From a virus (taxonomy: Duplodnaviria; Heunggongvirae; Uroviricota; Caudoviricetes): a stretch of 8,280 bases of DNA. Positions 192 through 6,627 of the stretch are shown piece by piece (the first letter of the stretch is position 1; each line of letters starts with the position of its first letter). The stretch lies in IMG/VR virus record IMGVR_UViG_2703718778_000005; one strand, given 5' to 3'. The notes under the pieces are model-generated. The model saw only the letters and a program-made list of their open reading frames with translations. It was not told the origin of the DNA and did not search any database. The translations under genes and the position numbers were made by a program.

Positions 192-2078
192 TTACTCTTC
201 CATCGCCTGGCGGATCTGATCCAACGACGCTGGATCATCAATGGTCGTCAGATCTCCAGGATCGCGTCCTTCGCAAATCGCCTGGATCGTGCGGCGCAGC
301 ATTTTTCCGGATCGCGTTTTTGGCAATTGCGAGACAAACCAGACGTGCGCCGGGCGGCCAAAGTTGCCAATCTGGCTGTCCACCAGCGCCATAATCGCCT
401 TCTCTTGCGAATGCGCCACATCACGATCTTCCAGACTGTCGCTCTCTTTCGGAATGACAAACGCTACCGCCACCTGCCCTTTCAGCGCATCTTTCACCCC
501 AACCACCGCCACTTCGGCAACGCCCGGATGACTGGAAATACTCTCTTCAATCTCGCGCGTGCCCAGCCGATGCCCGGCAACGTTAATCACATCGTCAGTG
601 CGCCCGAGAATAAAGTGATAACCGTCAGCATCGCGGATGCCCCAGTCAAAGGTGGCGTACACCGGACGGGAAAACAGCGACCAGTACGTCTTCACAAAGC
701 GGTCGTCATCGCCCCAGATGGTCTGAATACACCCCGGCGGCAGCGGCCCTTCCACCACCAGCATCCCTTTCTCGTTGACGCCACACGGTTCGCCGGTGAC
801 TTCATTAAGCAACTGCACGTTATAGCCATACATCGGCACGCCGGGGCTTCCCAGACGCGTCGGCCTGTCGTCCAGACCGCGAGCAATCGCCATAATCGGC
901 CAGCCGGATTCGGTCTGCCAGTAGTTGTCGATGACCGGCACATCCAGCGTATTGCTCACCCAACTGGCGGTCGGCTCGTCCAGCGGTTCTCCAGCCAGAT
1001 AGAGCACTTCCAGCGACGAGAGATCGTGTTTGCGAATTTCAGCGGTAGGGAATTTTTTCAGCACGCGAATGGCGGTCGGCGCTGAGAACATCCGGCTAAC
1101 CTGATATTTCTCGACGATTTTCCACCACACGCCGCAGTCCGGCCAGGTCGGTAATCCTTCGTAAACGATAGTCGCCATCCCCGCCAGCAGCGGCGCGTAG
1201 ACGATATACGAATGCCCCACCACCCAGCCGATATCCGAAGCACAAAAGAACACACCGCCCGCTTTGCCGCCAAAAATGGTGTCCATCGAGGTCGCCAGCG
1301 CCACCGCATATCCGCCGACGTCACGCTGCACGCCTTTAGGTTTGCCGGTCGTGCCGGAGGTGTAGAGAATGCAGGAGGTTTCGTTGGATTCCAGCCACGC
1401 CACCGGTACCCGCGCGCCGATGTGTTGATGGCGCAACGACGCGAAATCGACATCCCGCCCGCTGACGCGCGCCATTTTCGCCAGCCCGCGATCCACCAGC
1501 AAAACATGGCGCGGCTGGTGCTGCGCCTGACTTATCGCATCGTCGAGCAATTTTTTATAGGGAATGATTTTGCCACCGCGCGCTCCGGCATCAGCCGAGA
1601 CAATCAGCACCGGTTTAGCATCATCAATTCGCGCCGCCACGCTGTGCGAGGCAAATCCACCAAACACCACCGAGTGAATAGCGCCAATGCGCGCGCAGGC
1701 CAGCAGGGTAATATGCGCTTCGGCAATCATCGGCATATACACCAGCACCCGATCGCCACGCTGCACGCCCAGCGAGCGCAGCATTGACGCCACCGCGTTT
1801 ACTTCGTCATGAAGCTGGCGAAAGGTAAAGGTGCGCTCTTCTTCTGTTTCCGAAGAGACGGCAATCAGCGCCAGCGCCTCTGGCTGTTTCTCCAGCCAGC
1901 GATCGATAGCGTTGTGACACAAGTTGGTTCGGCCTTCACAAAACCAACGGGCAAACGGCGGATTGCTGTGATCGAGCGTTTGCGTAAAGGGCGTCTGCCA
2001 GTCAATACGCCGGGCCTGCTCGGCCCAGAACTGCTCCGGTTCGTTAATCGAACGCTGATAAAATTCGCTAAAAGACAT
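192..2078 (-). CDS. prpE: Propionate--CoA ligase (propionyl-CoA synthetase), acyl-CoA synthetase family
   Basis: 628-aa ORF whose length and sequence match E. coli PrpE as I recall it; contains the AMP-binding motif YTSGTTGKPKG. ATG at 2076-2078 preceded on the minus strand by AGGAGAG with a 4-nt spacer; TAA stop at 192-194. Last gene of the operon. Confidence 0.96.
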   Translation of the reverse strand: MSFSEFYQRSINEPEQFWAEQARRIDWQTPFTQTLDHSNPPFARWFCEGRTNLCHNAIDRWLEKQPEALALIAVSSETEEERTFTFRQLHDEVNAVASMLRSLGVQRGDRVLVYMPMIAEAHITLLACARIGAIHSVVFGGFASHSVAARIDDAKPVLIVSADAGARGGKIIPYKKLLDDAISQAQHQPRHVLLVDRGLAKMARVSGRDVDFASLRHQHIGARVPVAWLESNETSCILYTSGTTGKPKGVQRDVGGYAVALATSMDTIFGGKAGGVFFCASDIGWVVGHSYIVYAPLLAGMATIVYEGLPTWPDCGVWWKIVEKYQVSRMFSAPTAIRVLKKFPTAEIRKHDLSSLEVLYLAGEPLDEPTASWVSNTLDVPVIDNYWQTESGWPIMAIARGLDDRPTRLGSPGVPMYGYNVQLLNEVTGEPCGVNEKGMLVVEGPLPPGCIQTIWGDDDRFVKTYWSLFSRPVYATFDWGIRDADGYHFILGRTDDVINVAGHRLGTREIEESISSHPGVAEVAVVGVKDALKGQVAVAFVIPKESDSLEDRDVAHSQEKAIMALVDSQIGNFGRPAHVWFVSQLPKTRSGKMLRRTIQAICEGRDPGDLTTIDDPASLDQIRQAMEE

Positions 2079-2117: not shown

Positions 2118-3569
2118 TTAAATGACGTACAGGTCGAGATACTCATTGACCGGCATCTGTTCCAGGCGAGCTCTGTCGAGAGAAACCTCCAGAATGCGCT
2201 GCTGCTGGCGAGTCGGGAACTGGCGCGCGAGATTGATTTTGAATTTATCCACCAGCTTCGGAATGCCATCCTGACGGCGGCGAGCATGACCAATGGGGTA
2301 CTCCACCACCACTTCTTCAAAGCGCGTGCCGTCGGTGAACTCAAGAGTAATGGCATTGGCGATGGCGCGTTTTTCCGGGTCGTGGTAGTCAGCGGTAAAC
2401 GTCGGATCTTCAAAGCAATTGATCTTCTCGCGCAGGGCGTCAATGCGTTTATCTTGCGCAACGTTGTCCTCGTAATCTGCCGCCGTTAAGCGCCCGAACA
2501 ACAGCGGGATCGCCACCATGTATTGAATGCAGTGGTCGCGGTCAGCCGGGTTATTGAGCGGCCCTTTTTTGTCGATGATGCGAATACAGGCTTCGTGGGT
2601 GCGAATGGTCACTTTTTCGATATCCGCCGCCGTTTTGCCTGCTGCTTGCATCTGTTCATAGAGCGTCATCGCCGCTTCAACTGCCGTCTGGGAGTGGAAC
2701 TCCGCCGGGAAGGAGATTTTGAACAGCACATTTTCCATGACGTAAGAACCGTACGGGCGCTGGAAGCGGAACGATTCACCTTTGAAGGAGACGTCGTAGA
2801 AGCCCCACACCGGCGCAGTCAGGGCTGACGGGTAACCCATTTCGCCCGTTTTCGCCATCAGTGCCAGACGTACCGCGCGGGAAGTGGCATCGCCCGCCGC
2901 CCAGGATTTACGCGTGCCGGTGTTCGGCGCATGGCGATAGGTGCGCAGCGACTGACCGTCCACCCACGCCAGCGAAACGGCGTTGAGAATTTCCTCGCGG
3001 GTCAGGCCAAGCATTTCGGCGACCACGGCGGTGGAAGCCACTTTCACTAACAGAACGTGGTCGAGGCCAACGCGGTTAAAGGAGTTTTCCAGCGCGATGC
3101 AGCCCTGAATTTCATGGGCTTTGATCATTCCGGTCAGCACCTGTTTCATGGTCAACGGCGCTTTGCCGCTGGCGACCGCGTTGCGCGAAAGCCAGTCTGC
3201 CGTTGCCAGAATGCCGCCGAGGTTGTCGGAAGGATGCCCCCACTCCGCCGCCAGCCAGGTATCGTTGAAATCGAGCCAACGGATCATCGCGCCGATGTTA
3301 AATGCCGCCTGGACGGGGTCGAGCTGGAACTGAGTTCCGGGGACGCGCACGCCGTTAGGTACGACGGTGCCGGGGACAATTGGCCCCAGCAGTTTTTTAC
3401 AGGCTGGGTATTCGAGAGCTTCAAGACCGCAGCCGAGCGTGTCGAGCAGGCAGTAATGTGCGGTGTCGTAGGCTACTTTGGAGCTGATTTCGTAGTTCAT
3501 GACGTAATCGACGATATCAACGATTTCACGATCAAATTCCGGGCGGATGTTGTTGATTTGAGCTGACAT
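2118..3569 (-). CDS. prpD: 2-methylcitrate dehydratase (MmgE/PrpD family)
   Basis: 483-aa ORF matching E. coli PrpD in length and sequence ([23 protein letters not shown]...EYLDLYVI). ATG at 3567-3569 with AAGGAA upstream; 39-bp gap to prpE. Confidence 0.96.
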
Positions 3570-3602
3570 TGGGTACGTTTCCTTATTGTTATTCGTAGAG
3601 GT

Positions 3603-4715
3603 TTACTGGCGCTTATCCAGCGCGACAAACTGGCGGTCTTCCGGTCCAACATAATTGGCGGAAGGACGGATAATTTTGTTGTCCTGACGTTGTTCGATAA
3701 TGTGCGCCGCCCAGCCGGTGACGCGGGCGATAACAAACAGTGGTGTGAACATCTCGGTGGGAACGCCCATCATGTTGTAGGAAACAGCAGAGAACCAGTC
3801 GAGATTGGGGAACATCTTTTTGCTCTCCCACATCACCGTTTCCAGGCGATCGGCGATGTTGTACATCTTCAGCGAGCCGCCTTCCTGCGAGAGCTGCTTC
3901 GCCACACGTTTAATCACCTGGTGGCGCGGGTCAGCGATGGTGTAAACCGGATGACCAAAACCAATGACCACTTCTTTGTTTTCCACGCGCTTGCGGATAT
4001 CTGCTTCGGCTTCGTCCGGCGTTTCGTAGCGTTGCTGGATCTCCAGCGACACTTCATTCGCCCCGCCGTGTTTTGGCCCGCGCAGTGCGCCAATCGCGCC
4101 AATAATCGCGGAATACATATCAGAGCCGGTGCCCGCAATCACCCGACTGGTAAAGGTGGAGGCGTTAAACTCGTGTTCGGCGTACAGCACCAGCGAGATA
4201 TGCATCGCCTTTTCCCAGCTTTGCGATGGCTTTTCGCCGTGCAGCAGATGCAGGAAGTGACCGCCGATGGAGTCGTCATCGGTTTCCGGTTGGATGCGTT
4301 CGCCGTTGTGGCTGTAGTGATACCAATAAAGGAGAATCGAGCTAAGCGACGCCAGCAGTTTGTCGGCAATATCCCGCGCGCCAGAGACGGTATGCCCCTC
4401 TTTTTCTGGCAGCGTGCAGCCGAGCGCGGAAACACCGGTGCGCATAACATCCATCGGGTGTGACGCCGCCGGTAAGGCTTCCAGCACGGTACGCACGTTA
4501 GCCGGTAAACCACGCAGGGCTTTCAGTTTCGTTTTGTAAGCGGCGAGTTCGTCACGGGTCGGCAGTTTGCCGTGGATCAGCAGATGAGCCACTTCTTCAA
4601 ATTCGCAATGTTCCGCCAGATCAAGAATATCGTAGCCACGGTAATGCAGGTCATTGCCACTTTTACCCACGGTGCAGAGCGCCGTATTGCCCGCCGGAAC
4701 GCCGGAAAGTGCCAC
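3603..4715 (-). CDS. prpC: 2-methylcitrate synthase, 5'-disrupted (N-terminus replaced at the prophage junction plus a frame break; probable pseudogene or N-truncated product)
   Basis: The 370-aa ORF from GTG at 4713-4715 matches E. coli PrpC from about residue 20 ([33 protein letters not shown]...) to the C-terminus (...FVALDKRQ). Codons matching residues ~10-17 (STHVIKPK) lie at 4746-4723 in a different frame, and no in-frame ATG or native N-terminus exists upstream. Confidence 0.85.
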
Positions 4716-4748
4716 CGATTTTTCGGTTTAATGACATGGGTACTGTAA

Positions 4749-4769
4749 CACCCCGCATAACGCGGGGTG
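4749..4769 (-). other. GC-rich hairpin (8-bp stem, 5-nt loop) downstream of int; weak or non-canonical terminator, or att-arm structure
   Basis: caccccgc-ataac-gcggggtg is a perfect 8-bp inverted repeat. On the minus strand it is followed by TTACAGTACCC, so there is no U-tract and it is not a canonical intrinsic terminator. Confidence 0.35.
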
Positions 4770-4775
4770 CTGAAC

Positions 4776-4788
4776 TATCAACAACTTA
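4776..4788. promoter_or_regulatory. Candidate IHF-binding site in the att arm
   Basis: TATCAACAACTTA fits the IHF consensus WATCAANNNNTTR exactly. A related motif ATCAACGAC recurs at 4806-4814. Confidence 0.25.
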
Positions 4789-4877
4789 GAGAAAACACCT
4801 TAAAAATCAACGACACCCAAAAGCGATATAAGCCGCTATTAAGTGCCATTAATTCAGTTCGCGTAGGCAATGCGTAG

Positions 4878-5858
4878 TCAAACACCCAGTCCTCCACCAA
4901 GCGGATTTAGCGTAATCGCGTGCTGAAGAAAGTCCGGCGAAAGATGCGCATAAATCATCGTTTGCTTGATGCTGGCGTGCCCCATGATTTGCTGAAGCGC
5001 GATAATGTTTCCTCCGTTCATCATGAACCAGCTGGCGAACGTGTGGCGAAGTACGTGCGTTGACTGGCCCCGTGGTAAGTCAGGTTTTACACGCCGCAAC
5101 TGCTCGCGGAACTGAGCATAGTTCACATCAAAGAACGGCCCCGTTTCGCAGGTTTTGATCTCCCGCTCCAGCGCTTCCGAGATCGGCACCGTCCTTTTTT
5201 TGCCGTTCTTCGTTTTCAGAAAGGTCACACGCCCATGATTGACCTGCTCTGCCCGTAGCGTGCTTCCCTCATTCCACCGCGCCCCGGTACTGAGACACAG
5301 CAACGCCACCCGACGATTATCACCCTCCAGAAATTCCAGCAATCGGGCGATCTCCTGCTTTGTAAGGTAAGTCATCGGCGGCTGCGCCTCCCGTAGCGGC
5401 AGCAAACCGCGACAGGGATTTTCAACCCGAAATTCACCGAGTTTAATCAACGCGGTAAACATACCGGACAAACGATAGATATCGCGGTTAATGGTTGATG
5501 CGCTAATGCCATCTGTAAGCCGTTCGCCGCGATGCCTGGCAATTTCACGCTTATCAAGCCGGTTAACAGCCGGATTACCCAGCGCCCTGATTGTTTTTTC
5601 CAGTTGTTGCCTTTCGATTGCGCCGTTCTCCAGTGTCTGACCATGCAACAGCCACCAGATATCCAGCAATTCCCCAAGTGTGCGGCGATCAGTACTTGCG
5701 CCGAGCCATTCTTTTTTCTCGACGTTTGCCATCACATACCGCTCAAACAGGATAGCTTCCTGTTTTTTCTTGAAACGTCTGCGTATGCGTTTGCCTTCAC
5801 GACCACGCGGGTAAATATCCACCTGATATTGCCCCCCTTCGAGCTTCTTAATCGTCAT
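4878..5858 (-). CDS. int: Tyrosine site-specific integrase, P2/186/HP1 family
   Basis: 326-aa ORF. N-terminus MTIKKLEGGQYQVDIYPRGREGKRIRRRFKKKQEA is typical of P2-family integrases. C-terminal catalytic signature is present: TGARWNE (Arg), HVLRHTFAS (His-x-x-Arg), MIYAHL (Tyr nucleophile). Minus-strand RBS GGAGGG 7 nt upstream of ATG 5856-5858. Confidence 0.93.
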   Translation of the reverse strand: MTIKKLEGGQYQVDIYPRGREGKRIRRRFKKKQEAILFERYVMANVEKKEWLGASTDRRTLGELLDIWWLLHGQTLENGAIERQQLEKTIRALGNPAVNRLDKREIARHRGERLTDGISASTINRDIYRLSGMFTALIKLGEFRVENPCRGLLPLREAQPPMTYLTKQEIARLLEFLEGDNRRVALLCLSTGARWNEGSTLRAEQVNHGRVTFLKTKNGKKRTVPISEALEREIKTCETGPFFDVNYAQFREQLRRVKPDLPRGQSTHVLRHTFASWFMMNGGNIIALQQIMGHASIKQTMIYAHLSPDFLQHAITLNPLGGGLGV

Positions 5859-5924
5859 AGCGAAGCCCTCCGGTTGACACCAGTGAAACCGTCTCTAACC
5901 AGTCAATAAAATCAAAATGTAACG

Positions 5925-6248
5925 TTAACCAGTTTTGCGGACGGAGCGGCGCGACGTTGCCACATCTTCGCGCCCATCAGGGGAGAGAGTCGGGGCAATC
6001 TGCCCTGATTCCGGCGCAGTAGTATCAGTCATCAGCCACAGGGCGTACTTCTGAAACCGTGGGTGTGTTGTGATTTTGAGCAAAATTTCACTACCGACAC
6101 CATCCCTTCTCCCTGTCTCGTACTGTTTTTGAGTACTGGCAGGGACACCTGTAAGATCAAAGAATTGGCTTCTGGATAACCCTTCTGCATCTCTTATCAA
6201 ACGAATTTTTTCTCCTATCGAGCTTGACAGGGGTTCATATGACACCAT
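5925..6248 (-). CDS. Immunity repressor, P2 C-family
   Basis: 107-aa ORF with helix-turn-helix-like segment LSRSQFFDLTGVPASTQKQYETG and a C-terminal block WLMTDTTAPESGQIAPTLSP...KTG that closely parallels P2 C (...APESGQIAP...GQKTG) as I recall it. Located just upstream of and co-oriented with int, as in P2. RBS GAGGG 6 nt before the ATG. Confidence 0.85.
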   Translation of the reverse strand: MVSYEPLSSSIGEKIRLIRDAEGLSRSQFFDLTGVPASTQKQYETGRRDGVGSEILLKITTHPRFQKYALWLMTDTTAPESGQIAPTLSPDGREDVATSRRSVRKTG

Positions 6249-6345
6249 ATATTGCCCTCATTGGTTTCAATTGACACCATTCAATTAATACCGCTATAAG
6301 CGGATATAAACCGCCAATAGCACCAGAAAAAGGGGATTATTACAC
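6249..6345. promoter_or_regulatory. Lysis-lysogeny switch region between divergent C and cox (early and repressor promoters with operators)
   Basis: 97-bp AT-rich gap between divergent start codons. Contains TTGACA (6271-6276), the palindrome CCGCTATAAGCGG (6291-6303) and tandem 9-mers TATAAGCGG / TATAAACCG (6295-6303, 6305-6313) spaced 10 bp apart. Confidence 0.5.
6271..6300 (+). promoter_or_regulatory. Candidate sigma70 early promoter (Pe-like) driving cox and downstream genes
   Basis: TTGACA at 6271-6276, 18-bp spacer, TATAAG at 6295-6300. The -10 sits inside the tandem TATAA(G/A)C(G/C)G repeats, as expected if the repressor occludes the -10. Confidence 0.3.
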
Positions 6346-6627
6346 ATGAGAGACAGAGAGCTGGAGCGATATATCAACATCGGCTACCCAATTGATGCCG
6401 TCCCCGGCCCCAAATTCGCCGAGATGATCGGTAAACCGGCATCCGCTGTGAGTGACATGATTTCAGACGGAAAACTACCAGTTATTAAATGGCAGAACCC
6501 TAACGCTCTACGTTCACGCGCTGAAAACTGGATCTACATACCAGAATTCAACAAAGCGATGCGCGAAGCATTCTTTGCTCGCCCGAAAGAGCAACGGGAC
6601 GCATGGTTGTTGTGGATTGGATTGTGA
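6346..6627 (+). CDS. cox: Cox-family excisionase / switch repressor (P2 Cox-like)
   Basis: 93-aa ORF. FAEMIGKPASAVSDMISDGKLPVI...WIYIPEFN...RPKEQRDAWLLWIGL parallels P2 Cox (FAKLIGKSTGAVRRMIDKGKLPVI...WVYLPAWN...RPKEIRDGWLMWLGL) as I recall it. Divergent from C. Confidence 0.85.
   Translation: MRDRELERYINIGYPIDAVPGPKFAEMIGKPASAVSDMISDGKLPVIKWQNPNALRSRAENWIYIPEFNKAMREAFFARPKEQRDAWLLWIGL

Follow-up and report, generated by a model that had tools for sequence, protein, structure and literature searches.

The DNA analyzed here, an 8,280-nucleotide stretch that we call the window, spans the attL junction, on the int side, of a P2-family prophage integrated site-specifically in prpC, the gene for 2-methylcitrate synthase. 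The junction carries a 10-bp att core and, between int and that core, two conserved hairpins, HP1 and HP2; integration displaces the terminator on the far attP arm from int. Read-through of the C-int transcript into prpD and prpE is possible and, judged from these features, probably weak. The explanation that we favor, and that taken as a whole we judge reasonably likely, is that the C-int mRNA of this attL would mostly end or be processed at HP1, leaving prpD and prpE with a faint leak.

Genes were called from six-frame open reading frames (ORFs) combined with a Pfam search of the window. The features, with their positions in the window, their strand, and the evidence for each, are as follows.

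192-2078, minus strand: prpE, propionate-CoA ligase, 628 aa, intact (ORF; Pfam ACAS_N, AMP-binding, and AMP-binding_C).
2118-3569, minus strand: prpD, 2-methylcitrate dehydratase, 483 aa, intact (ORF; Pfam MmgE_PrpD_N and MmgE_PrpD_C).
3603-4746, minus strand: prpC', truncated 2-methylcitrate synthase gene (allele alignment; Pfam Citrate_synt).
4719-4723, minus strand: A5 run in prpC', a -1 frameshift (alignments).
4737-4746, minus strand: att core ACAGTACCCA, 10 bp (alignment of both KY171 junctions, an intact prpB-prpC, and the window).
4749-4769, minus strand: HP2, hairpin with arms CACCCCGCG and UGCGGGGUG (folding and covariation).
4776-4788, plus strand: IHF-like site TATCAACAACTTA (read from the sequence against the consensus).
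4804-4855, minus strand: HP1, 22-bp imperfect hairpin, with a U-rich tail at 4795-4803 (folding of both strands).
4861-4881, minus strand: two direct repeats TTGNCTACNC, read as Int arm-type sites of the P' arm (motif count).
4878-5858, minus strand: int, P2-type tyrosine integrase, 326 aa (Pfam Int_N and Phage_integrase).
5925-6248, minus strand: C, HTH immunity repressor, 107 aa, first gene of the lysogenic operon (weak Pfam HTH_31 match; position).
6224-6280, plus strand: Pe-like early promoter, TTGACA-18-TATATT, 11/12 (promoter scan).
6240-6248 and 6272-6280, plus strand: operator-like direct repeats TGACACCAT, two exact copies (they flank the Pe-like -10).
6346-6627, plus strand, divergent: cox, Cox-family excisionase and Pc repressor (Pfam Phage_Cox, 8e-24).

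A preliminary description of this DNA had placed C, int, prpC', prpD, and prpE in that order on the minus strand, with prpD and prpE intact. Both statements are borne out by the ORFs and by a Pfam match for each gene: the prpD (483 aa) and prpE (628 aa) frames run uninterrupted, and the two genes retain their native intergenic spacing. Int contains Int_N (1.9e-30) and Phage_integrase (1.6e-20) domains. C matches HTH_31 at 24.5 bits, under the curated cutoff of 27; because this match is weak, the gene is named mainly from its position, from the 107-aa HTH protein annotated at the same place in four lysogens, and from P2 gene order.

The bacterial side of the junction was delimited by a megablast search of 5,426 complete E. 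coli genomes, in which ordinary prpC homology (99.9%) is limited to 3603-4746. The homology does not stop at 4715, where the longest ORF starts; the alignment extends to 4746, and comparison with the intact operon shows that phage DNA replaces the first 26 nt of prpC, giving the chimeric junction sequence GCGGGGTGNNACAGTACCCATGTCATTAAACC. The att core ACAGTACCCA (window 4746-4737) corresponds to prpC codons 9-12, sits 132 nt beyond the int stop codon, and is common to both prophage junctions and attB. In the lysogen KY171, prpC' is separated from prpB-prpR by a P2-like prophage of ~33 kb with a copy of the core, directly repeated, at each end. Its genes include those for the P2-family capsid, scaffold, portal, terminase, Ogr, and replication endonuclease (a gpA homologue), and the element is 98% identical to that in the window. 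The window itself reaches only 3.5 kb into the phage, and a full prophage is assigned to it by analogy with KY171. The contiguity of prpBCDE is broken: the operon is split after 26 nt of prpC, and in KY171 prpB and prpR are ~33 kb off.

A similar prophage occupies the same site in the same orientation in 5 of the 5,426 genomes, with 90-98% identity over int, C, and cox. The prophages of these five lysogens differ by 2-10% over the region and their flanking single-nucleotide polymorphisms differ too, suggesting that the prpC core is a genuine attB that has been used repeatedly. Because the polarity of the att core fixes the orientation of integration, prpC'DE and C-int are co-oriented. This arrangement is one of two possible outcomes, set by core polarity; it therefore carries no statistical weight, is silent on selection, and is not an adaptation. 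The phage part of the window has no megablast match in 50,697 phage records, its relatives being found at the protein level only, and the attP junction that we reconstructed from both KY171 junctions has no match among the viral contigs searched. This is an ordinary P2-family prophage junction with an attB, prpC, that is undescribed in the searchable literature, where we found no account of a prophage in prpC.

Prophages are known to interrupt genes elsewhere, as phi10403S does in Listeria comK and SPbeta and skin do in Bacillus. As in those cases, integration in prpC is site-specific, falls in a coding sequence, and inactivates the gene, which precise excision would restore. The insertion could then be a reversible switch (active lysogeny) in which regulated excision returns prpC to use when propionate has to be catabolized. 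Because the core matches attB exactly, precise excision would rebuild prpC, and the window shows no apparent damage to int, cox, or the att sites. However, there is no evidence here for regulated or programmed excision, which sets this prophage apart from phi10403S and SPbeta/skin; the insertion is rare, at 5/5,426 genomes; and the A5 frameshift in the window would keep prpC broken after excision. A switch of this kind is extremely improbable. Unlike those examples, too, the insertion falls at the very start of an operon's second gene and acts mainly through polarity, by cutting prpC'DE off from its promoter.

The phage side of the junction is organized like the lysogeny module of P2. The order attP, int, C, and divergent cox is the same, an Int arm-type site overlaps the 3' end of int (P' arm), and a Pe-like promoter overlaps the start of C together with two operator-like direct repeats, a layout that resembles Pe with O1 and O2 in P2. 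In the window these are the two exact TGACACCAT repeats that flank the -10. Further, the KY171 prophage has homologues of the P2 capsid, portal, terminase, Ogr, and gpA proteins. The differences lie in Int, which is ~62% identical to that of P2-group phages and 79% identical to those of phiT5282H and SEN4/5; in attB, which is inside prpC rather than intergenic; and in the IHF-like site, which lies between int and the core.

In P2, C and int form a lysogenic operon transcribed from Pc (PMC3936717). A consensus scan did not find Pc in the window, and the same scan misses the experimentally annotated Pc of P2; the result indicates a weak promoter and nothing more. The consensus scan also found no promoter-like site on the minus strand within 3400-6500, and a terminator scan found no canonical intrinsic terminator on that strand between C and prpD. 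The native control of prpBCDE depends on sigma-54, PrpR, and 2-methylcitrate (PMC4987338), and with PrpC absent the normal route to this inducer is closed.

The TTGNCTACNC repeats overlap the int stop codon, occur twice against 0.14 matches expected, and are conserved in relatives. The site TATCAACAACTTA at 4776-4788 is a perfect match to WATCAANNNNTTR, which we take to be the IHF consensus, and its position is likewise conserved in relatives. With its arm-type repeats and IHF-like site, the int-to-core interval reads as a typical P' arm.

The preliminary description had noted a hairpin without a U-tract at 4749-4769 and had taken it for the only structure between int and prpC'. The hairpin itself, HP2, which is GC-rich, stands: it has a predicted stability of -19.2 kcal/mol (z = -3.4), which none of 200 shuffled sequences equaled, and its stem consists of eight G-C/A-U pairs and two outer pairs. 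Its tail in the int sense, UUACAGUACCC, has no U-tract, and the two U that it contains are predicted to be paired; the terminator scan of the window did not report HP2. Its conservation was followed in a 16-sequence alignment of the window, the five lysogens, phages phiT5282H and SEN5, and eight Enterobacterales genomes (Int 73-80% identical), in which 96% of cells are paired and compensatory GC/AU/UA changes occur. In all 10 of the relatives at sites other than prpC, HP2 is preceded by A7-9 and its int-sense tail is poor; in those relatives it is a predicted canonical terminator for transcription entering from outside toward int. In the prpC clade, a U-tract is present on neither strand.

HP2 is not, however, the only structure in the interval. 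A longer hairpin, HP1, lies at 4855-4804, directly 3' of int, with U-rich sequence after it. Its 22 pairs include six G.U, and it folds at -25.0 kcal/mol in the sense strand (z = -6.2) versus -6.4 kcal/mol in the antisense strand (z = -1.5). Conservation of HP1 was judged by folding each sequence separately. A hairpin is found at this position in 15/15 relatives. Its stem is built from no fewer than five sequences unrelated to one another, and an invariant TGATTT is always directly adjacent; in 15 of the 16 sequences, folding is more stable in the sense than in the antisense strand. RNAalifold applied to a MAFFT alignment recovered HP2 but not HP1. When forced into one register, HP1 is 62% paired, a low value that arises because the clades are out of register. 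An Rfam search gave no match at the junction.

HP1 runs into UUGAUUUUU. Its 3' side and tail, GUUGAUUUUUAAGG, contain seven U in 10 positions, in an interrupted run that lies partly within the A/U-rich lower stem. Termination at HP1 could be poor, given the interrupted tail UUGAUUUUU and a lower stem rich in A/U and G.U pairs. The HP1-homologous element in Trabulsiella was flagged by the terminator scan, and the HP1 of the window was not flagged by the same scan. From its folding and position, HP1 may be a leaky terminator or, alternatively, a 3' stabilizer or processing site of the C-int mRNA. It may also relate to the posttranscriptional control of P2 int that Yu et al. reportedly described in 1994.

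Both hairpins could instead be by-products of attP architecture at the DNA level, such as inverted Cox boxes or Int core-type sites, in which case transcription would be unaffected by them and only Rho would limit read-through. P2 offers the closest parallel. It too has a long hairpin after int, and this equivalent of HP1, situated within the annotated Cox-binding region, is as stable on one strand as on the other; the P2 cox-boxes at attP point both ways (PMC3936717). In the window, HP2 abuts the crossover core, which is again in keeping with a role in DNA. Against this, the HP1 of the window, with its six G.U pairs, folds in sense RNA only (the two energies given above), unlike the symmetric hairpin of P2, and the same strand is favored in nearly all of the aligned sequences. 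In addition, the stems vary while pairing is kept, which fits selection on structure better than it fits a fixed protein-binding motif. On this evidence a purely DNA-level origin is distinctly unlikely, and we retain HP1 as the candidate end or processing point of the C-int mRNA.

The P2 record has no annotated terminator between int and the core; its nearest one, that of the ogr/F operon, is on the far arm. Similarly, the far arm of KY171 carries a GC-rich hairpin of 12 bp that lies ~100 nt beyond the core and runs into GUUUUUCUUU in the int sense (-25 kcal/mol; L003 34228-34199), and phiT5282H has a sense-facing terminator-like site beyond attP (L009 2711-2745). The only predicted canonical sense-facing terminator of this phage type is thus the one on the far attP arm. 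The retention of a strong terminator beyond attP suggests that the C-int transcript normally passes both HP1 and HP2. Integration shifts this terminator ~33 kb from int, which supports the premise of read-through put forward in the preliminary description. In the prophage, the far-arm terminator faces prpB and would halt PrpR-dependent transcripts.

Two precedents from lambda are relevant here. In that phage, sib retroregulates int through RNase III, and escape synthesis of gal and bio needs N antitermination during induction. As with sib, a 3' element of the int transcript sits on the other side of attP, and integration parts it from int; here, in contrast, what is displaced is simply an intrinsic terminator. 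As with escape synthesis, prophage transcription can cross the junction into co-oriented host genes; the read-through proposed here differs in that it would start at the lysogenic promoter and is not known to involve antitermination. Taken to its limit, loss of the far-arm terminator would let the lysogenic promoter drive prpD and prpE constitutively, with HP1 as a conserved RNA element setting the level of escape. We consider this version very unlikely.

The broader proposal, that constitutive read-through from C-int gives PrpR- and propionate-independent PrpD and PrpE at a relevant level, so that the prophage has captured the operon, draws on several of the observations above. The genes are co-oriented, no canonical minus-strand terminator lies between C and prpD, HP2 has no U-tract, the canonical sense-facing terminator on the far attP arm is lost by integration, and prpD and prpE, both undamaged, are spaced as in the native operon. 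It has to contend, however, with HP1, which the first reading of the sequence overlooked; with a Pc that is unrecognizable by consensus, although the scan misses the known Pc of P2 also; and with ~1.3 kb of untranslated RNA ahead of prpD, which in the window is frameshifted as well. PrpD and PrpE would, moreover, have no role in the pathway when PrpC is absent, and in the lysogen KY171 prpE is a pseudogene. Capture of the operon at a relevant level is, on balance, doubtful.

The untranslated stretch follows from the state of prpC'. The remnant is without the first 26 nt of the gene, its promoter, and its start codon, and the longest ORF runs from GTG 4715 (370 aa). Alignments show A5 at 4719-4723 in the window versus A6 in intact prpC and in the five other lysogens, and the resulting frameshift puts a TAA just upstream of GTG 4715. 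In the A6 lysogens, PGAP calls a coding sequence of 376 aa from an ATT codon that has no Shine-Dalgarno sequence. An in-frame start supplied by the phage was rejected: by hand translation, the A6 lysogens have no ATG, GTG, or TTG in the interval from the upstream TAG to the ATT, and the nearby ATG 4737 is in another frame whether the run is A5 or A6. As a side observation, RefSeq lists the truncated prpC as an intact gene starting from the ATT codon.

With no usable prpC' start, and with the A5 frameshift, the ~1.3 kb of RNA from the int stop to the prpD ribosome-binding site would carry few or no ribosomes. Long untranslated RNA is the classic condition for Rho polarity. The prpC' RNA contains rut-like C>G stretches, for example at 4358-4211, and a RhoTermPredict-like heuristic counted 31 of them versus 30.5 in shuffled sequence. 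Since the two counts are about equal, termination by Rho is assumed, and the heuristic is informative only in that it does not exclude Rho.

The integrity of the downstream genes bears on the same question. prpD is intact in the window and in all lysogens. The same is true of prpE with one exception among the five lysogens, KY171, where an internal stop makes it a pseudogene. Because prpE pseudogenes occur in nonlysogens too, intactness of prpD and prpE is uninformative; it is compatible with continued use or merely with a recent insertion.

In the explanation that we favor, integration has split prpBCDE: the sigma-54/PrpR promoter stays with prpB, ~33 kb away, and prpC'DE has none. In the lysogen, a weak Pc would make the C-int mRNA, most of which probably ends or is processed at HP1. 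Polymerases that continue beyond HP1 would cross HP2 and the core into prpC', and the ribosome-free prpC' RNA would likely be cut short by Rho ahead of prpD. The predicted net result is a lysogen that is unable to use the methylcitrate cycle and in which prpD and prpE receive at most a faint constitutive leak. Read-through at a low level is plausible, and the chance that a transcript crossing the junction would be detectable by RT-PCR appears slightly better than even. Expression of PrpD and PrpE to a physiologically meaningful extent, judged on the same features, is unlikely. Because PrpC is missing, any read-through would probably have little physiological effect. Our literature searches found nothing relevant on read-through from P2 prophages.

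The finding gives a P2-family integrase an attachment site, prpC, of which the searchable literature yielded no description. If read-through were substantial, it would mean that a prophage maintenance promoter had taken over part of a host metabolic operon, and that integration redefines the 3' end of a P2-type lysogenic transcript. The rare prpC lysogens, for their part, should be unable to run the methylcitrate cycle.

Two hairpins lie between int and the truncated prpC gene (prpC') of the window, and the longer of these, HP1, follows int.

Window 4804-4855, minus strand: HP1, a long hairpin with six G.U pairs that folds in int-sense RNA only.

Across 16 P2-family elements, the position of HP1 is conserved and its sequence is not; an invariant TGATTT always adjoins it. 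Candidate roles for HP1 are a terminator, a 3' stabiliser, an RNase III site, or a target of Int autoregulation. On the other side of int, the spacer separating it from C, the putative immunity repressor gene, carries a third copy of the operator-like repeat (TGACACCAG; 5875-5883, plus strand; 8/9 match), which could be a chance occurrence or a putative C-binding site acting on int.

Within prpC', positions 4719 to 4723 form an A5 homopolymer that is A6 in intact prpC and in five other lysogens, giving a -1 frameshift. Over 1,144 nt nothing else differs from the closest prpC alleles. Either a genuine mutation or a sequencing error could account for the A5. In each of the five lysogens compared (L001 5001-6131; L004 to L007 1501-2631), RefSeq/PGAP calls the truncated prpC an intact 376-aa gene with an ATT start, and gives it no pseudogene label.

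Two REP/BIME-type palindromic repeats are found 3' of prpE, at 17-93 and 111-186 (Rfam naRNA4, 70.9 and 39.5 bits). An IS621 (IS110-family) transposase gene lies just 3' of prpE in lysogens KY171 (L001 242-1222) and KY176 (L029 1-473), and KY171 prpE contains an internal stop. In KY171, two Hok/Gef toxin genes (L003 33496-34138) are located on the far prophage arm, with an identical hairpin after each gene, followed by a terminator (L003 34199-34228) that is oriented towards prpB in the prophage. Because this terminator is flanked by both poly-A and poly-T, it may act bidirectionally.

Integrases 73 to 80% identical to that of the window (L011 to L016, L024, and L027) share a different att core, ...GAAGACAGGGATGGTG..., located about 150-190 nt beyond the int stop. 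Their hosts are Erwinia, Kosakonia, Trabulsiella, Salmonella, Citrobacter, Rosenbergiella, and Tatumella. The second hairpin, HP2, has equivalents in relatives with other integration sites, as follows.

Window 4749-4769: HP2.
L009 (phage phiT5282H) 2600-2618: HP2 equivalent.
L013 (relative with the different core) 3600-3618: HP2 equivalent.
L015 (relative with the different core) 3591-3609: HP2 equivalent.

The T-tract of HP2 has been lost in the prpC-integrating clade. In the relatives integrating elsewhere, HP2 is a canonical inward-facing terminator whose T8 tail lies on the antisense strand, and there it probably protects int against incoming host transcription.
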